64,000 nucleotides of DNA from the NCBI GenBank assembly GCA_934085825.1, contig CAKOHR010000001.1, positions 64,379-128,378 on the forward strand. The letters are read 5' to 3'. This DNA comes from an uncultured Bacilli bacterium. Its GTDB lineage: Bacteria > Bacillota_I > Bacilli_A > RF39 > UBA660. The translations under genes and the position numbers were made by a program. The notes under the pieces are model-generated. The model saw only the letters and a list, made by a program, of their open reading frames with translations, was not told the origin of the DNA and ran no database searches. Below are positions 3,268 through 57,441 of this stretch, piece by piece. Numbering within the stretch: the first letter of the stretch is position 1; every line of letters begins with the position of its first letter.

Positions 3268-3343
3268 TGGTGTCCCCTCAGGGATTCGAACCCTGGACCC
3301 ATTGATTAAGAGTCAATTGCTCTACCAACTGAGCTAAGGAGAC
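3268..3343 (-). tRNA. tRNA-Lys (anticodon CTT)
   Basis: The reverse complement folds as a cloverleaf: GTCTCCT acceptor, GCTCAGTTGGTAGAGC D-arm, anticodon stem ATTGA/TCAAT with loop CTCTTAA, GGTTCGAATCC T-arm, encoded CCA. Confidence 0.85.
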
Positions 3344-6508: not shown

Positions 6509-6533
6509 AAAAAAGCCTTTTGGGCTTTTTATA
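6509..6533. terminator. bidirectional terminator between convergent genes
   Basis: aaagcc tttt ggcttt hairpin flanked by A-run and T-run. Confidence 0.5.
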
Positions 6534-7947
6534 TTGTTTTTGATGTTAATTTTCTAGTTGAATCAATATCTATAAGTACGTTATCAGAATCTTTTTTTTC
6601 ACCTTCAATAATTTTATCTAATTTGGTGTTGCAGAAATATCTTAAACGATAAATTTCTTTTTCTTCATCTGTTTCAAATAATAAATTTAAAAGTAATTCA
6701 AGACGTTTTTCTTCATCTGGTTCGTTTCCTATCTTTTTAGCTAAAATGGTTTTAAAGTTATATTCATCATAAGTGTTTAGATCATGAGATATTTGTACTA
6801 GCTTGGCAAAAAGATTTATATTTGCTAATATTTCTTTAAATGATACTTCACCATTAGCCATTCTAAATTCTATAGTGTTCTTTTCTGGTTTATTAATGTT
6901 TTGAAGATTTAATCCACGATATCTTGATGAACTTATTTTTTTTATAGTTTCAATGTAATTTGAATAGGTACGACATTTTTCTAAATCACCATTTTCGATT
7001 GAATTTATAAGTTCTTTTTTTATTTTGCCAGCAAATTTGGCAAATTTTAATCTTTTTTGAGAATAAGCTTTGTCTGTTATATTATAGATAATATCTTCAC
7101 AATTAGCAAAAAGATATAATAATGTTGCATAATCTTCCTTGGTTTTAAGGTAATCTGCTCCGATATGAACGTGACAACCGCATGATTGATCTGCTGAAAA
7201 ATTCATCTTTTCTAGAGTTGCACATACGGCTTCAAGTGTAGTAAGGTCCTCTTTTGTGTAGTGGAGAATTGGTGATATAACTTCAAATCCTTTTTTTACA
7301 GAATTATCTTTTGTTATTTCAAATGTATCAAATAAACTAGGAATATTTATAAAACGTTTAATATCTGGATTAATGACTTCTAGTTCAATCCCGATAGTTA
7401 TTTCTGGAGATACCGTACTTGTAACCATATCATCGTTTTCATTTGTATAAAGATTTTTGTTGGCTTTATTGTTGGTGTTTAATAAATATTTTACATCTTT
7501 ATCTTGTATTTTGCTAATTAAATATTGCTCAATTTCACTTTCACTTCCGTAGCAATGGTATACATTTTTTATTAATTCCATTCTGTCTTCAAGCGTTTCA
7601 GCTTCTTCAAATGTTTTTAGTATTTGTTCTTTGTCTTGTGCTGCCACTATAAACATACTTTTTAAAGGAAAGTATGTAGGTTTCATTTTATCTAAAAATT
7701 CTAAAGCCACAACACGTAATGCTTCAGGTGTAAATAGTTTTTTTATTGTTTGTAAATCAAAACGATAATACATTAATGTGTATTTATTAAAAATTTTTTC
7801 TCTTAATTCAGAGTCTTTTATTGATAAAACAATTATTAAAAATTGATCTTGCTTAATTGTAGTATTCTTTTTTAAATATTCAATTAATGCTTCATCATCC
7901 TTACTTTCAAAGTATTTTTTTAATTGCATAATTAACATTTCATTCAT
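6529..7947 (-). CDS. hypothetical protein with a C-terminal glutamine-synthetase-like amidoligase-type domain (tentative)
   Basis: 472 aa. The C-terminal half carries IGIELEV, KKGFEVISPIL, GCHVHIG and TIEFRMANG, which I recognise as the strand motifs of the GCS2/Amidoligase_2-type carboxylate-amine ligase fold. The N-terminal ~180 aa are unique. Confidence 0.5.
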   Translation of the reverse strand: MNEMLIMQLKKYFESKDDEALIEYLKKNTTIKQDQFLIIVLSIKDSELREKIFNKYTLMYYRFDLQTIKKLFTPEALRVVALEFLDKMKPTYFPLKSMFIVAAQDKEQILKTFEEAETLEDRMELIKNVYHCYGSESEIEQYLISKIQDKDVKYLLNTNNKANKNLYTNENDDMVTSTVSPEITIGIELEVINPDIKRFINIPSLFDTFEITKDNSVKKGFEVISPILHYTKEDLTTLEAVCATLEKMNFSADQSCGCHVHIGADYLKTKEDYATLLYLFANCEDIIYNITDKAYSQKRLKFAKFAGKIKKELINSIENGDLEKCRTYSNYIETIKKISSSRYRGLNLQNINKPEKNTIEFRMANGEVSFKEILANINLFAKLVQISHDLNTYDEYNFKTILAKKIGNEPDEEKRLELLLNLLFETDEEKEIYRLRYFCNTKLDKIIEGEKKDSDNVLIDIDSTRKLTSKTI

Positions 7948-8029
7948 AACACAACCCCCAATTTAATATAATGTTATCACATTTTGTGGCTTTTGTCAAA
8001 TTGGCTATGCTATGAAAAAAATTGAAGAC

Positions 8030-8548
8030 TTAATATTTAAAGTCTTCAATTTCAGTTTTAGATTTATGTGGTTCATCAAATAACAAACCATCGTAATTTC
8101 TTTGTCTTAAAGCTTCATATAGCATAATTGCTACAGTGTTTGATAAATTAAGTGCTCTAACATTATCTGTCATTGGCATTCTCATGCATTTATCAATGTG
8201 GGGTTTTAATATCCCTTTAGGAATACCTGTTGATTCTTTTCCAAATACAAAAAATATATTTTCTTTAGTATTGCTATAATCAAAACTAGAGTGGGGCTTA
8301 TGACCATATCTTGTCAAAAAATAAAATGTGCCATCTGCGTTTTTGTCTAAAAAATCTTCCCAATTTTCATAAACATACCATTTTAATTTATCTATGTAAT
8401 TGACTCCACTTCTTTTAAGTGATGCATCATCTACTTTAAAACCTAATGGTTTAATTAAATGTAAAGTAGTATTTGTTGCTACACATGTTCTCATTATATT
8501 TCCAGTGTTTTGTGGGATTTCTGGTTCAAATAAAACAACATTTAACAT
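8030..8548 (-). CDS. trmL: tRNA (cytidine/uridine-2'-O)-methyltransferase TrmL (SpoU family)
   Basis: LFEPEIPQNTGNIMRTCVATNTTLHLIKPLGF matches the SPOUT-class TrmL/CspR N-terminus. About 170 aa. Confidence 0.85.
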   Translation of the reverse strand: MLNVVLFEPEIPQNTGNIMRTCVATNTTLHLIKPLGFKVDDASLKRSGVNYIDKLKWYVYENWEDFLDKNADGTFYFLTRYGHKPHSSFDYSNTKENIFFVFGKESTGIPKGILKPHIDKCMRMPMTDNVRALNLSNTVAIMLYEALRQRNYDGLLFDEPHKSKTEIEDFKY

Positions 8549-8560
8549 AATTTCACTTCC

Positions 8561-8584
8561 TTAAAAAAGGCCTTTATTGGCCTT
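8561..8584 (-). terminator. terminator after the 8574..9167 gene
   Basis: aaggcc tttatt ggcctt hairpin with a T-run on the minus strand. Confidence 0.45.
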
Positions 8585-9167
8585 GGTATTCATAAATATC
8601 TAATAGTTTTTGAAAATCACTTGCATTTATAATATTATTGTCGTCTCTATGTACTAAACTTTTAATTTTACCATCTTTGTAATAAAGTATTGTAGGAACT
8701 TTTGTAATTTTGTCTGTTTCAAAAGCATTATTTAGTCTAGTTAAGTAATTATCTTCATTTAAAATATCCTTAATATTTATGTAGTAGAATGAATCATTTA
8801 ATTTATACTTGTCAATAATTGTTTTTAATCCTGTTTCAAGATTATATGTGTCTTTGTTTCCTGTGTAAGTAATTAAAATAAAGTATTCAGTTGGTGATTC
8901 TTTAAGTATTTGACTTACTTCATCTAAATTTTTGATTTCTAGGCTAACAGTTCCTGTACTTACTAGATAGCTTGTATTATATTTTTCAGATGTATTCACT
9001 TTATTAACTCTGTAAATATAAAATATAACAAGTATTAGTAAAAGTAATATTCCAATAATTATTAGAAAATTTTTCGAAGTAAATATATTTTTAGTTTCCT
9101 TTACTTCTTTAATTTCTGTTTCAGTTTTTTTTACATTTTTTGTTTTTGTATTTGCCATATACACCAT
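8574..9167 (-). CDS. hypothetical membrane-anchored protein (single TM; thioredoxin-like C-terminal region possible)
   Basis: 197 aa. One strong TM helix, and codon usage consistent with its neighbours. Confidence 0.5.
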   Translation of the reverse strand: MVYMANTKTKNVKKTETEIKEVKETKNIFTSKNFLIIIGILLLLILVIFYIYRVNKVNTSEKYNTSYLVSTGTVSLEIKNLDEVSQILKESPTEYFILITYTGNKDTYNLETGLKTIIDKYKLNDSFYYINIKDILNEDNYLTRLNNAFETDKITKVPTILYYKDGKIKSLVHRDDNNIINASDFQKLLDIYEYQGQ

Positions 9168-12686: not shown

Positions 12687-14648
12687 ATGGACAGAATACG
12701 TGAAAAAATAAAGAAAATCCTTAATAAGGACGTAACAAGTCTTTTAAATAAACATAAAATTCTACTGGTAAGCATAGCTATAGTAGTTATTTTGTCGTGC
12801 GTTGGATTAATAGTTTCGTACGCATTTTATCAAGTTGTAGATACGACCCCAGTGATCTTGAGTACGACACCACAGATAGCAGATTTAGAAGTCAGGATTA
12901 TGGCAGAAGAAAGAGATACTAGTGGTAATGGGCTTAATAGTTATGCTATTTATCCATATATACCAAAAGCTGGATATAAATATGATGCTGGTATGAGTTA
13001 TTGTACAAATGGAAGTACTATTAATTACGATGCAAGTACTTATGATGCCAGTATAAATGCTACCGGGCATGATGTTTGTTATTTATATTTTAAATCAACA
13101 GCAAGCTTAGATATAACTTTAGAAGTTTATGCGGAAAATGTAGATAGTGATGGGGTTGGTAACGGAGAATATACAAAATTAGAAACTACATCTTTGCCAT
13201 CAATTGGATATGAACTTAATAGTAGTAAATCTTATTGTGTGTATGCAAATGATGAAAGTACTCATGTAACTGATACTACAGTTTCTTATAATTCTGATAA
13301 ACAAAAATTTACAGTAAACGCTAGAAAAAAAGGTGCAATTTGTAGGGCTTATATGGATGCAATGGATGTAGATATTGCTCTTAAAATATTTGTTCAAGCT
13401 AAGAAGGGCTCATCAACATATTATGAAGTTGATAAAATACCTGTAACTAGTTTCTATGCACTGAATACTGACAAGTCGGCGTGTACAGGTACATCGACAA
13501 TGTCAATTAAAAATCAAAAAGTTGTGATAGCAGCAACAAATAGAACAAATTGTGTTGCTTATTTAGATGTTTCTTCAGGCCCCTTTATAGAAAGCATGAG
13601 AGTTACAAATTCAGGAACAAGTGCAACAATTACACTTGGAAATAGTAATTTAGGAACAACGCCATCAACATATTATTATTCAAATGATGGTGGAAAAAAC
13701 TATGCAACAAGTACAAGTAACACATATACATTTACAAGTCAAGCAAATCCAAGTTATGCATATAAAGCATATAGTGCAGATGCATCAGGAAATACATCAA
13801 GAGTATTCGAAACATCAACTTATGGATATTATGGATTAGTAGATTATTCAAACCAAATACAGACTAAGACAATTACAGAATCTGGTTATTACAAATTAGA
13901 AACTTGGGGAGCTCAAGGCGGTGGAGATACTAAGTATGTTGGTGGATATGGTGGATATTCGGTTGGATATATTTATTTAAATCCAAATTCAACATTATAT
14001 CTTGCTATAGGTGGAGCTGGTGGTTATTGTACTGGTTCAAGTTGTACTTCAGTAGGAGGGTATAATGGCGGAGGAAACTGTAAAGCATATACAGATTCAA
14101 CATCAACATGTGGAGCTGGTGGTGGAGCTACTCATATAGCGACAATTCCAGGAGTGCTGGCATCATTAGAAAATAATAAAGACAGTATTTTAATAGTTTC
14201 TGGCGCAGGTGGCGGAGGAAATTACTGTAATGACTGGAATTATGCTTCTGGTGGCATGGGCGGCGGATTTACTGGTGGATCTGCAATAGATTTAGGGGCT
14301 CCAGATTTTTCTGCTAATGGTGGTTTAGATACCAAAGGCGGTACACAAGATGGAGGTTGGAAGTTTGGTTTAGGTCGTGGAAGTGAAGGAGCTAACTTTG
14401 TTGGAGGCGGCGGTGGTTATTATGGCGGTAATTCAACATTTATAAATGGCTCTGGTGGTGGTTCTGGTTATATTGGCAATCCATTATTAACAAATAAATC
14501 GATGTATTGTTATAATTGTACAACTAGTAATTTAGAGACAACAAAGACAATTTCTACGACATGCCATAGTTCAAATGCTACTGAAAATTGTGCAAAAGAG
14601 GGTAATGGTTATGCTATTATTACCTATATTGGGAGTGATTTAAGTTAA
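12687..14648 (+). CDS. membrane-anchored glycine-rich surface/secreted protein, tandem paralog 1 of 2
   Basis: 653 aa. A cytoplasmic N-terminus, then a TM anchor ending in an SYAFYQV motif. Next comes a Cys-containing N-domain. The C-terminal half is a Gly-rich region (WGAQGGG, GGYGGY, GGGATHI, IVSGAGGGG, GGGGGYYGG, SGGGSGYIGNPLL), ending in the conserved tail CHSSNATENCAKEGNGYAIITYIG. Confidence 0.8.
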   Translation: MDRIREKIKKILNKDVTSLLNKHKILLVSIAIVVILSCVGLIVSYAFYQVVDTTPVILSTTPQIADLEVRIMAEERDTSGNGLNSYAIYPYIPKAGYKYDAGMSYCTNGSTINYDASTYDASINATGHDVCYLYFKSTASLDITLEVYAENVDSDGVGNGEYTKLETTSLPSIGYELNSSKSYCVYANDESTHVTDTTVSYNSDKQKFTVNARKKGAICRAYMDAMDVDIALKIFVQAKKGSSTYYEVDKIPVTSFYALNTDKSACTGTSTMSIKNQKVVIAATNRTNCVAYLDVSSGPFIESMRVTNSGTSATITLGNSNLGTTPSTYYYSNDGGKNYATSTSNTYTFTSQANPSYAYKAYSADASGNTSRVFETSTYGYYGLVDYSNQIQTKTITESGYYKLETWGAQGGGDTKYVGGYGGYSVGYIYLNPNSTLYLAIGGAGGYCTGSSCTSVGGYNGGGNCKAYTDSTSTCGAGGGATHIATIPGVLASLENNKDSILIVSGAGGGGNYCNDWNYASGGMGGGFTGGSAIDLGAPDFSANGGLDTKGGTQDGGWKFGLGRGSEGANFVGGGGGYYGGNSTFINGSGGGSGYIGNPLLTNKSMYCYNCTTSNLETTKTISTTCHSSNATENCAKEGNGYAIITYIGSDLS

Positions 14649-14779: not shown

Positions 14780-16726
14780 ATGGACAGAATACGTGAAAAA
14801 ATAAAGAAAATCCTTAATAAGGACGTAACAAGTCTTTTAAATAAACATAAAATTCTACTGGTAAGCATAGCTATAGTAGTTATTTTGTCGTGCGTTGGAT
14901 TAATAGTTTCGTACGCATTTTATCAAGTTGTAGATACGACCCCAGTGATCTTGAGTACGACACCACAGATAGCAGATTTAGAAGTCAGGATTATGGCAGA
15001 AGAAAGAGATACTAGTGGTAATGGGCTTAATAGTTATGCTATTTATCCATATATACCAAAAGCTGGATATAAATATGATGCTGGTATGAGTTATTGTACA
15101 AATGGAAGTACTATTAATTACGATGCAAGTACTTATGATGCCAGTATAAATGCTACCGGGCATGATGTTTGTTATTTATATTTTAAATCAACAGCAAGCT
15201 TAGATATAACTTTAGAAGTTTATGCGGAAAATGTAGATAGTGATGGGGTTGGTAACGGAGAATATACAAAATTAGAAACTACATCTTTGCCATCAATTGG
15301 ATATGAACTTAATAGTAGTAAATCTTATTGTGTGTATGCAAATGATGAAAGTACTCATGTAACTGATACTACAGTTTCTTATAATTCTGATAAACAAAAA
15401 TTTACAGTAAACGCTAGAAAAAAAGGTGCAATTTGTAGGGCTTATATGGATGCAATGGATGTAGATATTGCTCTTAAAATATTTGTTCAAGCTAAGAAGG
15501 GCTCATCAACATATTATGAAGTTGATAAAATACCTGTAACTAGTTTCTATGCACTGAATACTGACAAGTCGGCGTGTACAGGTACATCGACAATGTCAAT
15601 TAAAAATCAAAAAGTTGTGATAGCAGCAACAAATAGAACAAATTGTGTTGCTTATTTAGATGTTTCTTCAGGCCCCTTTATAGAAAGCATGAGAGTTACA
15701 AATTCAGGAACAAGTTCAACAATAACACTGGGAAATAGTAATTTAGGAACAACACCATCAACATATTATTATTCAAATGATGGTGGAAAAAACTATGTAA
15801 CAAGTACAAGTAACACATATACATTTACAAGTCAAGTAAATCCAAGTTACGCATATAAAGCATATAGCGCAGATGCATCAGGAAATACATCAAGAGTATT
15901 TGAAACATCAACATATGGATACTATGGATTAGTAGATTATTCAAATCAAATACAAACAAAAACAATTACTGAACCTGGATATTATAAATTAGAAACTTGG
16001 GGAGCTCAAGGTGGAGGATATGGTGAGTATATAGGTGGATATGGAGCATATGCAATAGGATATATCAGACTTGATGCTGGTCCAGTGTATATTAATGTTG
16101 GTGGAGCTGGTAAGAGTGGTGTACAAAGTTCAGAAGGAATTGTTACTTCTGGAGGGTACAATGGCGGTGGAGCCAACACATCAAACAGTTATGGTATTGG
16201 AGGTACTGGTGGTGGAGCAACTCATATATCATTACGTTCTGGGTTATTGCAAACATTAAGTGATTATTTAAATGAGTTGTTAATAGTCTCAGCCGGAGGT
16301 GGCGGAGGTTCACAAGAAATAGGCTATATAGGTTATTGTTATGGTGGATCTGGCGGCGGTATAACAGGAACAGTGGGCTCGTTAAATCCTAACAGAGGTG
16401 ATGGTGGTCCCGGACTTGCAAGTGCACCTACACAAAGCAGTGGTTATGCATTTGGAGCTGGTCAACCAGGCGTTGGTTGGCAAGGCGCAGGTGGTGGCGG
16501 TTATTATGGTGGCATAGCAGGATGCGGTGGATCTGGTGGTTCATCCTACATTGGCAATCCTCTTTTAGTTAATAAATCAATGTATTGTTATAATTGTACA
16601 ACCAGTAGTGCTGAAGCCACTAAAACTGTTTCAACAACATGTCATAGCTCAAATGCTACTGAAAATTGTGCAAAAGAAGGTAATGGTTATGCTATTATTA
16701 CCTATATTGGCGAAAGTTTGGATTAG
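14780..16726 (+). CDS. membrane-anchored glycine-rich surface/secreted protein, tandem paralog 2 of 2
   Basis: 648 aa. The first ~310 aa are essentially identical to paralog 1, and divergence grows after that. The Gly-rich half is strongly diverged, but the last ~50 aa are conserved. Confidence 0.8.
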   Translation: MDRIREKIKKILNKDVTSLLNKHKILLVSIAIVVILSCVGLIVSYAFYQVVDTTPVILSTTPQIADLEVRIMAEERDTSGNGLNSYAIYPYIPKAGYKYDAGMSYCTNGSTINYDASTYDASINATGHDVCYLYFKSTASLDITLEVYAENVDSDGVGNGEYTKLETTSLPSIGYELNSSKSYCVYANDESTHVTDTTVSYNSDKQKFTVNARKKGAICRAYMDAMDVDIALKIFVQAKKGSSTYYEVDKIPVTSFYALNTDKSACTGTSTMSIKNQKVVIAATNRTNCVAYLDVSSGPFIESMRVTNSGTSSTITLGNSNLGTTPSTYYYSNDGGKNYVTSTSNTYTFTSQVNPSYAYKAYSADASGNTSRVFETSTYGYYGLVDYSNQIQTKTITEPGYYKLETWGAQGGGYGEYIGGYGAYAIGYIRLDAGPVYINVGGAGKSGVQSSEGIVTSGGYNGGGANTSNSYGIGGTGGGATHISLRSGLLQTLSDYLNELLIVSAGGGGGSQEIGYIGYCYGGSGGGITGTVGSLNPNRGDGGPGLASAPTQSSGYAFGAGQPGVGWQGAGGGGYYGGIAGCGGSGGSSYIGNPLLVNKSMYCYNCTTSSAEATKTVSTTCHSSNATENCAKEGNGYAIITYIGESLD

Positions 16727-24048: not shown

Positions 24049-26132
24049 ATGAATATGTTAGAAGGATTAAATAAAGAACAAAAAGAGGCAGTTTTACATA
24101 CAGACGGGCCTTGCTTGGTGCTTGCTGGTGCAGGTTCAGGAAAAACAAAAGTTTTAACAACTAGAATAGCAAATATGATAAATGATGGTATATATTCAGG
24201 AAATATTTTAGCTATAACATTTACAAATAAAGCTGCTAAAGAAATGCGAGATAGAATAAGTAATATGGTGGAAAATAATTATGCTTTTGTTGGAACATTT
24301 CATTCTTTTGGACTTAGGGTTATTAGAGAAAATACAGAAAAATTAGGCTTAACAAGTAATTTTACTATAATTGATAGTGATGATGTTTCAAGTGTCATAA
24401 AAAAAATAATGAAAGAACTTGATATAAGTACTAAAGAATATAGTGTAAGTTATATAAGAAATAAAATTAGTTTTATTAAAAATGAAATGCTTAGTGATAG
24501 TGAAGTTGATAAATATTTAAATAGTCCACCAGAAAAAGTAGCAATTAGGGTATATCATGAATATGAAAAAGTATTAAAGAGAAATAATGCTGTAGATTTT
24601 GATGATTTATTAAAAAGACCTGTTGAATTATTTATGCAAAATGATGATATATTAGATAAATATCAAGAAAAATATAGATATATTTTAATAGATGAATATC
24701 AAGATACAAATGAGGTACAATATAAGTTAGTTAAGTTACTTGCTAGTAAATATCGTAATTTATTTGTAGTGGGTGATGTTAATCAAAGTATATATGGATT
24801 TAGATGGTCAAATTATAAAAATATACTTAATTTTGAAAAGGATTATCCTGATAGTAAAAGTATTACTTTAAATCAAAATTATCGAAGTACAAATAATATT
24901 TTGAATGCTGCCAATAGTGTTATAAAAAATAATGTTGAAAGAAAAGAAGTAAATTTATATAGTACTTTTGGTGATGGTGTTAAAATTAAATATTTTAGAG
25001 GTAATGATGAGAAAGATGAAGTAAAACTTGTCATTGATGAAATGAAGAAATTACTTAATGAAGGATATGATTATAATGACTTTGCCATACTTTATAGAAC
25101 TAATGCTCAATCAAGAAATGTTGAAGATGCTATATTAAAAGTTAATTGGCCTTATAGAGTTGTTGGTAGTTATTATTTCTACAAAAGAAAAGAAATTAAA
25201 GATTTACTTTGTTATTTAAGACTTATTTCTAATCATCAAGATGATGTTTCTTTAGAAAGAGTTATAAATGTACCTAAAAGAGGCATTGGGGATACATCAA
25301 TTAATAATTTGAGAAGTATAGCACGTGAAAATAATGAATGTATGTTTAAGTGTTTATCTAAGCCTAAGGAAGTTGAATTTAAAAAATTGATTTTAGAGCT
25401 TACCGAAGATGCTAAAGATTTAGATTTAACTGAATTAATTGATGTGGTGCTTGAAAAATCTGGATTAAAAGATGAACTTGAAAAGGAACATACTTTGGAA
25501 GCTGATATTAGACTTGAAAACTTAATGGAATTTAAAAGTATTACAGAAAACTATCAAAAAGAAACTGGTACAGTAAATCTTGAAGACTTTCTTGAAGATA
25601 TTAGTATTGTAGCTGATCAATCAGAACATGAAACTTTAGATAATGCCGTTACACTTATGACAATGCATGCTGCTAAAGGACTTGAATTTAAAGTGGTATT
25701 CTTAATTGGTATGGAAGAAGGTATAATGCCACATTCAATGAGTTTAAATGAAGATGGTGAACTTGAAGAAGAAAGAAGACTTTGTTATGTTGGTATAACT
25801 AGAGCTAAAGAAAGACTTTATATTACCAATGCTAAAAGAAGAATGCTATTTGGTAATACCAATATGAACCCGCCATCAAGATTTATCGCGGAAATAGATA
25901 ATAATTTAATAGAAAAAGAAGAAAGTAAAACAGAAAATAAAGCATTTAATAAAACAAACTTTTATGAGGGAGATAGAATTGATTACAAACATGGAGAAAT
26001 TGTTATGCATGCATCATTTGGCAAAGGTGTTGTTATAGATAATGATGAAAGATTTGTAACAGTTGCCTTTGATAAAAGGTTTGGTATAAAGAAATTTTTA
26101 AATAATTATCAAGGTTTAAGGAGGATTGGAAA

Positions 26133-51880: not shown

Positions 51881-51957
51881 GGCGAGATAGCTCAGCTGGC
51901 TAGAGCATCCGGTTCATACCCGGCAGGTCGAGAGTTCGAATCTCCCTCTCGCTACCA
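51881..51957 (+). tRNA. tRNA-Met (anticodon CAT; could alternatively be the lysidine-modified tRNA-Ile2)
   Basis: GGCGAGATAGCTCAGCTGGCTAGAGC ... anticodon loop TTCATAC ... GGTCGAGAGTTCGAATCTCCC, with encoded CCA. Confidence 0.85.
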
Positions 51958-57099: not shown

Positions 57100-57248
57100 A
57101 ATCCTTTCTTTAATGTATGTGATATATTTTTTATTACAATGTTGATTTTGCTTTTTGTAATATATCTGACGATTATACAAACCGTGATGCATCCGCCGAA
57201 TGTTCGATAAACATCATCCTCGTTAACCTCAGGGGTCTGGCGCTAACA
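57100..57248 (-). ncRNA. glmS ribozyme (GlcN6P-dependent self-cleaving riboswitch) in the glmS leader
   Basis: The reverse complement reads ...TAGCGCCAGACCCCTGAGG...ACGAGGATGATGTTTATCGAACATTCGGCGGATGC..., matching the conserved glmS ribozyme core (AGCGCCAGA at the cleavage site; ACGAGGA..CGAA..TTCGGCGGATGC). Confidence 0.75.
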
Positions 57249-57441
57249 AATAATTTTACCTCCATCAATTATTTTGTTTTCATTTTCATTATAATATATG
57301 CAAAATAAAAAGTCAAAAAGTTTTATATTAATGTTTACAGCTAATTATAGATGGTAATTAATTAAAAAGAAATATTTTGAAGTTTTAGCAGGCTCTAGAC
57401 ACGTAACTTCATTTATTGTATAATTGATGTGGTGACGCAAA

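Follow-up and report, generated by a model that had tools for sequence, protein, structure and literature searches.

The ligase gene and its product

The DNA analysed here is a stretch of 64,000 nucleotides from contig CAKOHR010000001.1 of an uncultured Bacilli bacterium, referred to below as the window, and its subject is an amidoligase-like gene on the minus strand (6529..7947). The gene is a complete open reading frame with an ATG start, 472 codons and a stop, and encodes a protein of the Amidoligase_2 family (PF12224). No second copy of the ligase is present within the 64-kilobase window. An identical 472-residue protein occurs, without a name, in NCBI, ENA and Logan assemblies.

The product was confirmed as a genuine member of Amidoligase_2 with a glutamine-synthetase-like fold and intact catalytic-type residues. 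Its PF12224 match scores 72.2 bits, above the curated gathering cut-off of 22 (E-value 8.1e-20), and comprises amino acids 213-383, which align to positions 72-244 of the 245-position profile. The first 71 profile positions are unaligned, and the 'amidoligase' profile PHROG 7631 aligns from amino acid 183. The core has the glutamine-synthetase-like fold and carries the GxExE, E..S, HxH and ExR motifs of the family, as seen in an alignment of 14 sequences of the window ligase family (A1) and in one of 89 homologues down to about 23% identity (A2).

All the motifs quoted in the preliminary description of this DNA are found in the translation: ITIGIELEV (amino acids 183-191), EVISP (222-226), GCHVHIG (257-263) and IEFRMANG (359-366). 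The strand motif G186-I-E188-L-E190 (7378..7392, minus strand, as are those that follow), which is of a metal- or ATP-site type, has its glycine and both glutamates invariant in A1 and at least 90% conserved in A2. In the E222-V-I-S225-P motif (7270..7284) E222 and S225 are invariant in A1; S225 is also invariant in A2, where E222 is at least 90% conserved. The H259-V-H261 motif (7165..7173) lies inside GCHVHIG, with H261 invariant in both alignments and H259 at least 90% conserved in A2. The E360-F-R362 motif (6862..6870), inside KNTIEFRMANGE, is invariant in both as regards E360 and R362, with F361 invariant in A1. R299 and N365 complete the set of residues invariant in A2.

The preliminary description had proposed the Amidoligase_2 or glutamine-synthetase-like fold while allowing that the HVH and EFR motifs might be chance resemblances. 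The significant profile match and the conservation of the motifs in both alignments bear out the fold and show that the motifs are not coincidental. Its further label, 'YbdK/GCS2 type', has to be dropped: the protein has no PF04107 or Gln-synt_C match in Pfam even at an E-value of 1, hhalign gives a probability of 2% against E. coli YbdK, and the fold alone is common to the two. NCBIfam has no match to the ligase. Pfam matches to 'Fin' (E-value 0.0015) and Evr1_Alr were below the cut-offs and were set aside.

Transcription unit and protein location

The gap upstream of the ligase measures 82 base pairs and holds a promoter-like site and a ribosome-binding site. The promoter-like site (7971..7999, minus strand) consists of TTGACA, a spacer of 17 nucleotides and the extended -10 element TGaTAACAT. 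Across the window and three syntenic genomes the -35 TTGACA does not vary and the extended -10 is conserved, but the remaining spacer sequence has diverged. The ribosome-binding site, GGGGG (7955..7959, minus strand), is located 7 nucleotides 5' of the ATG. The upstream neighbour is a gene of the SpoU family, TrmL-like by the JGI name of two homologues, and at its end a terminator-like hairpin, GAAGACTT/AAGTCTTC, is followed by a T-run (8014..8047, minus strand). This hairpin was recognised by eye and not called by the terminator scan; it looks like an element that would part the SpoU/TrmL and ligase transcription units. At the other end of the gene, a bidirectional terminator-like hairpin (6510..6530), called by the scan on both strands, is common to the ligase and the convergent dacA gene.

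Because it has its own promoter-like site and is flanked by terminator-like hairpins, the ligase gene looks monocistronic and sigma-A driven. The promoter is sigma-A-like and does not have a sporulation-specific look when set beside the consensus sequences of sporulation promoters. The ligase has neither a signal peptide nor a transmembrane segment and is cytoplasmic, whereas DacA carries a typical signal peptide and is exported.

Domain architecture

The protein is comprised of three parts. The N-terminal domain (amino acids 1-170; 7438..7947, minus strand, as are the other two) is all-alpha, with 12 helices in an alpha-solenoid-like arrangement; it is specific to the family, and no other part of the protein is as divergent. 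It is followed by the catalytic core with the glutamine-synthetase fold (amino acids 184-389; 6781..7398). A C-terminal helical region with a beta-hairpin (amino acids 390-472; 6532..6780) extends beyond the end of the Pfam match at amino acid 383; in the structure model it forms helices at 398-448 and strands at 457-471. Residues Y433, R436 and N440 of this region are at least 90% conserved in the wider clade (89 homologues), and a local profile search found the region in 45 of 120 listed homologues.

Internal repeats are not detectable in the N-terminal domain (probability at most 1.3%), and it is therefore not classed as a member of the HEAT or TPR families. Thirteen further clusters of proteins, 456-501 amino acids long, align over 92-100% of the window ligase with 42-58% identity, in addition to one cluster that is 99% identical. 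In all, about 14 clusters carry the window-type N-terminus, which was found nowhere else among 1.84 billion representative proteins. Four sister clusters that were inspected contain 11 to 337 sequences each, and all the members read are without a name. Remote homology links the N-terminus to that of the next clade, P0016-P0023 (hhalign probability 95.8%, E-value 7e-9), which is longer (about 216-276 amino acids) and holds an extra inserted block.

The listed full-length homologues follow one plan: an N-terminal extension of 117-497 amino acids, a core of about 214 and a C-terminal extension of 60-134. An N-terminal extension is the rule in this Firmicutes clade, and the window family has its own version of the variable module. 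The N-terminus, described earlier as 'unique', is indeed specific to the family but is found in other genes as well. Low-GC Firmicutes make up the clade to which the protein belongs, and its members combine a variable all-alpha N-terminal domain with the catalytic core and with a C-terminal helical region that is conserved.

The locus in related genomes

The ten genes flanking the ligase encode ProS-like, SepF, DivIVA, SH3, FtsY, DacA, SpoU, DUF6568, FtsK and CotJC proteins. Amidoligase_2 genes are described in Pfam as having a GATase-like thiol peptidase or Aig2/gamma-glutamyl cyclotransferase gene for a partner. Neither is found in the ten flanking genes, nor in the corresponding positions of L001-L007, and the gene is an orphan in this sense, as had been proposed. 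Such a neighbourhood is a contextual trait and not a sequence criterion, so its absence leaves the family assignment standing.

The block CotJB-CotJC-FtsK-DUF6568(PedC-like)-SpoU-ligase is kept in all five subclades of the window family. The dacA side is variable: in L005 four extra genes (flavodoxin, aldo-keto reductase, MerR and LCM) separate the ligase from dacA. Loci L100 and L101 contain the whole block, but SpoU and DacA are 27 base pairs apart with a single hairpin between them, and this gap holds no ligase or remnant of one. Their SpoU is 85% identical to that of the window. Judged by its neighbours, the empty-site locus L100 is at least as near to the window as L005, which carries the ligase (identity to the window protein 92 versus 89% for FtsY, 80 versus 74% for DacA and 95 versus 88% for CotJC).

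Since L100 and L101 keep the block and dacA without the ligase, the ligase is an accessory gene, present in some members of a human-gut Bacilli lineage and absent from others, and it occupies a variable junction between trmL(SpoU) and dacA. That it lies next to dacA in the window family may be incidental. The earlier picture of a gene standing alone and convergent with dacA is right as to layout, with its own promoter-like site and a common terminator; a functional tie to dacA was not established. The neighbourhood, whose conservation had been suggested as a check, is kept on the SpoU side and variable on the dacA side.

In relatives farther off (SpoU 78% identical), at L097:6547-7122 and likewise in L098 and L099, a second PedC-like/DUF6568 paralogue convergent with SpoU takes the place of the ligase and dacA, which underlines the SpoU junction as a variable spot. 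The DUF6568/PedC-like protein of the window (8574-9167, minus strand; E-value 1e-58) lies between ftsK and SpoU/TrmL in all relatives and evolves moderately fast (64-84% identity). Elsewhere in the window, two tandem paralogues of about 650 amino acids (12687-14648 and 14780-16726, both plus strand), the orthologues of which have the glycine-rich Pfam domain ALK_LTK_GRD, adjoin the highly conserved CotJB/CotJC genes. They diverge fast (58-72% amino acid identity), and there is one copy in L001 and two in L005 and the window. Rfam matches above the gathering score are a glmS ribozyme (57111-57255, minus strand), two tRNAs (3271-3343, minus strand; 51881-51954, plus strand) and RF03531, a Clostridioides difficile small RNA, inside a helicase gene (25738-25836, plus strand).

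Rate of evolution

The window proteins were used as the reference for comparison with the syntenic genomes L001, L007 and L005. No other gene of the block evolves nearly as fast as the ligase, whose amino acid identities to the window protein are 57, 54 and 46%, respectively. The corresponding values are 93, 93 and 89% for FtsY, 89, 89 and 74% for DacA, 92, 94 and 88% for SpoU, 90, 90 and 83% for FtsK, and 96, 98 and 88% for CotJC.

Non-synonymous (dN) and synonymous (dS) divergence were estimated by the method of Nei and Gojobori, with dS near saturation for most pairs. The ligase has a dN of 0.24-0.47 and a dN/dS of 0.25-0.41, compared with 0.01-0.19 and 0.02-0.21 for FtsY, DacA, SpoU, FtsK and CotJC; its non-synonymous change is 5-10 times faster than that of these housekeeping neighbours. 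Against L005 the dN/dS is 0.53 in the N-terminal region and 0.61 in the C-terminal region, and 0.26 in the core. The purifying selection, together with the fixed catalytic residues, indicates that the ligase is functional. In the closest pair, L001-L007, the dS of the ligase (0.97) is about twice that of the neighbours (0.27-0.54), which could reflect old alleles or allelic replacement; given the near saturation of dS, this value is not leaned on.

Sister clades

The wider clade was surveyed by a metagenome scan, which gave 495 confirmed relatives. Of these, 76 loci were kept and pooled with the earlier ones into a set of 94 loci in 34 subclades (at least 70% identity). The three neighbours on each side were clustered and representatives annotated.

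Two families of small proteins, A (about 145-160 amino acids) and B (about 130-140 amino acids), accompany five and seven distant ligase subclades, respectively. Their genes lie directly beside the ligase on the same strand at L011:8617-9516, L014:8017-8448, L016:8024-8416, L017:2139-2992, L085:6019-6504 and L088:7395-7817. Families A and B may be partners or substrates of these distant ligases; they are absent from the window (best tblastn E-value 0.38).

Tandem ligase paralogues together with one or two copies of a protein of about 555 amino acids, C7, occur at L036:1861-8887, L050:3670-8919 and L008:8001-13064. Precomputed annotation of C7 gives a faint match to PF18736 (pEK499_p136) and nothing else, and the idea that it is a degenerate ligase paralogue was ruled out (hhalign 0.6%). 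Downstream of the ligase pair in L036 and L050 come an NlpC/P60-like gene, DUF6512 and an ASCH gene. At L067:5398-8949 each of the two tandem ligase genes is broken into two reading frames (336+260 and 365+206 amino acids), by either pseudogenisation or an assembly error. The ligase and dacA of L068 are similarly fragmented, which suggests sequencing errors there. Two genes downstream of the L032 ligase, L032:8409-8891 encodes a 160-residue protein with a BclA C-terminal/C1q-like domain of the exosporium type.

Proposed function of the ligase

The gene probably encodes a catalytically competent, ATP-dependent carboxylate-amine ligase of the cytoplasm, whose helical domains would choose a peptide-like or protein target, and it is accessory, self-contained and fast-evolving. 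The fold and the conserved acidic, histidine and arginine residues argue for the ligase chemistry. By analogy with other enzymes of the glutamine synthetase fold, the carboxylate of the substrate would be phosphorylated by ATP/Mg2+ to an acyl-phosphate, which would then be attacked by an amine to form an amide or isopeptide bond. The N- and C-terminal helical regions would select the target, presumably a peptide-like or protein substrate and not a simple metabolite. Rapid non-synonymous change around fixed active-site residues suggests that the target, or the selective agent, itself changes fast, as the peptide structure of the cell envelope or a conflict partner might.

Several points weigh against this interpretation. 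The searchable literature contains no biochemically characterised member of PF12224, so the ligase chemistry is drawn from fold analogy. In PDB searches, run with the sequence by itself and with a profile of the 89 sequences, the core matches no entry; the sole weak match, to a designed HEAT-like alphaRep protein, is due to the N-terminal repeats of the clade. The placement of the motifs follows from sequence. Which way the reaction runs is uncertain, for the glutamine synthetase fold also includes the hydrolase Dop, and the alpha-solenoid domain is no more than circumstantial evidence for a macromolecular substrate. Finally, a dN/dS that is raised but below 1 can arise under relaxed constraint and not just under diversifying selection, and most pairs have a dS close to saturation.

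Possible roles in cell wall peptide chemistry or a conflict system

According to one alternative, which refines the earlier suggestion of a cell-wall component and which we consider unlikely but the strongest of its kind, the cytoplasmic ligase amidates a free stem-peptide carboxylate of a peptidoglycan precursor or recycled muropeptide, or adds an amino acid or amine to it. It would then belong to the same pathway as the trimming peptidases DacA, VanY, LdcA and NlpC/P60 and alter the chemistry of the cell surface. Members of the clade do adjoin genes of this type in several arrangements. In L032, VanY and then DacA are directly upstream of the ligase on the same strand with a 48-base-pair gap; the ligase is divergent from VanY in L008 and L042 and convergent with it in L082 and L083; a Peptidase_S66 gene lies 25 base pairs upstream of it in L011; and it is divergent from Peptidase_S51 in L064. 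The NlpC/P60-like gene downstream of the tandem pair in L036 and L050 is a weak match (E-value 2e-4, below the gathering score), and in the window family the neighbour is DacA.

With one locus taken per subclade, peptidases account for 10 of the 113 reading frames within two genes of the ligase and for 4 of the 186 farther away (Fisher p 0.0096), all four of the distant ones being the window family's own dacA. The test is post hoc, for the peptidase profiles were built from the ligase neighbours themselves, and the subclades are not independent, as three of the peptidase contexts have the C7 gene in common. Many subclades are without such a neighbour, among them those of L013, L014, L016, L017, L031, L034 and L065. 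The recurrent neighbours, which act on non-ribosomal peptide bonds, are suggestive of cell-wall-type peptide chemistry and are a lead, not a finding. A prediction that a phage amidoligase modifies cell-wall receptors, credited in PMC11318856 to Iyer et al. 2009, points the same way. Other observations speak against a role in the wall. The adjacency to dacA looks incidental, as DacA stays where the ligase is missing (L100, L101) and is four genes away in L005, and DacA has the signal peptide that the ligase lacks. One would not expect housekeeping enzymes of wall precursors to be dispensable, or their evolution to be so rapid. The suggestion of a spore component, also made earlier, has against it a promoter that is sigma-A-like and does not look sporulation-specific.

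A conflict system is a somewhat less probable alternative again. The variable helical domain would recognise a foreign or competing protein, from a phage, a plasmid or a rival cell, and the ligase would covalently modify that protein or a host target; the gene would be a single-gene defence or exclusion function that has turned chromosomal. Such a role would agree with the presence and absence of the gene at a variable junction, with its being the fastest-evolving gene of the block and most diverged in the recognition-type regions, and with the N-terminal modules of variable length, the tandem paralogue pairs and the recurrent unannotated partners (C7, families A and B) of the sister clades.

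Relatives at the level of the core also occur in accessory or early regions of phages and plasmids. The phage relatives have at most 31% identity; one of them, gp81 of the Faecalibacterium phage FP_Taranis, lies near helix-turn-helix regulators. There are 95 Clostridium plasmid records, with 25-27% identity among the matches listed. The listed C. perfringens plasmid matches are annotated 'amidoligase family protein', and one adjoins dcm and DUF4417. In all these cases the core alone is aligned. The close family is absent from phage and plasmid records and from the 2.9 million viral contigs of IMG/VR, where the best match has 27% identity and is again confined to the core. PADLOC-DB 2.0 has no family matching the window ligase or any of three relatives. 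For the partner families it gave a single 10-residue match to RTasHEPN (E-value 0.005), which is meaningless, and families A and B have no Pfam match; PHROGs gave nothing significant for the ligase, its relatives or the partner families. The ligase gene shows no compositional anomaly (GC content 25.9%, compared with 27.2% for the window), the window holds no partner gene, and the gene calls on either side, which are housekeeping, showed no integrase, repeats or other marks of a mobile element. The gene, though accessory, thus has neither the close phage or plasmid relatives nor the mobile marks by which cargo of a mobile element or prophage would be recognised.

The readings as a wall-peptide enzyme and as a conflict component are compatible with each other, and either would agree with the rate of evolution and the dispensability of the gene. 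Two others are less likely than these. A small-molecule metabolic ligase resembling YbdK/GCS2 or gamma-glutamyl-amine synthetase, making a gamma-glutamyl or similar amide from free metabolites, is improbable in view of the missing PF04107 and Gln-synt_C matches, the negligible hhalign probability with YbdK and the lack of metabolic operon partners; nor would a metabolic enzyme typically have helical domains so large and variable, be dispensable or evolve quickly. A Dop-like amidase, working in reverse to hydrolyse an amide or isopeptide bond with the same fold and a bound nucleotide, is very improbable, as there is no Pfam match to the Pup_ligase family, no Pup-like or proteasome genes were noticed among the ligase neighbours, and the protein resembles true ligases at least as closely.

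Significance

Amidoligase_2 is a large family, widespread on phages, plasmids and Firmicutes chromosomes, and no member with an experimentally defined substrate was found in the searchable literature. The locus provides a clean natural experiment: within a conserved housekeeping block there is a series of alleles of a monocistronic, dispensable gene, along with relatives whose site is empty, and the catalytic residues are invariant while the putative recognition domains diverge rapidly. If the target of the carboxylate-amine ligase were a peptidoglycan-type peptide or a conflict partner, this would be the first function for the family and would account for the occurrence of D,D- and L,D-carboxypeptidases next to related ligases; with a mundane target, the gene is one more annotated hypothetical protein.

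A more specific and rather speculative proposal is that of a self-transcribed, fast-diversifying single-gene ligase of the glutamine synthetase fold whose lineage-specific helical domains steer it to an envelope peptide precursor or an invader protein, where it covalently caps a carboxylate. Should this doubtful scheme be true, gut Firmicutes would have a means, not described before, of varying the chemistry of their surface or of resisting phages and antimicrobials, and the D,D- and L,D-carboxypeptidases that repeatedly accompany sister ligases would mirror it.

Comparison with known systems

The better-known enzymes of the same fold are distant. With YbdK/GCS2 (E. coli b0581; Salmonella homologue PDB 1tt4), the non-significant hhalign alignment still pairs TIGIELE with TLGIELE and TIEFR with TVEVR, but YbdK has no helical N-terminal domain. 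PafA and Dop have no sequence-family match to the ligase, and their extra domains are unrelated. Glutamine synthetases of types I and III are 8-12% identical to the window protein, which is without their N-terminal beta-grasp domain.

The phage and plasmid members of PF12224, such as FP_Taranis gp81, ORF23 of LUZ24-like phages and WP_061416169.1 of a C. perfringens plasmid, have the same core, fold and GxExE/HxH/ExR-type motifs, but only the core aligns, with 25-31% identity. To this core the window ligase adds a family-specific, all-alpha N-terminal domain of 170 amino acids and a C-terminal region of about 85, and its gene is chromosomal and monocistronic. The amidoligase of LUZ24-like phages is listed with COOH-NH2_lig, GATase and ATP-grasp genes (PMC3890496) and that of Clostridium prophages with a gamma-glutamyl cyclotransferase (PMC11318856); the window ligase is accompanied by none of these.

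The sister clade P0016-P0023 (510-576 amino acids; L008, L032, L036 and L050) is 36-40% identical over 75-81% of the window ligase, has a homologous N-terminal helical module and C-terminal region, and comes from low-GC gut Firmicutes. The sister clade has tandem pairs and C7, VanY or NlpC/P60-like neighbours, in place of which the window has only the unrelated adjacency to DacA. In both its architecture and its gene context, the window ligase is a new variant within an enzyme family that is known but uncharacterised.

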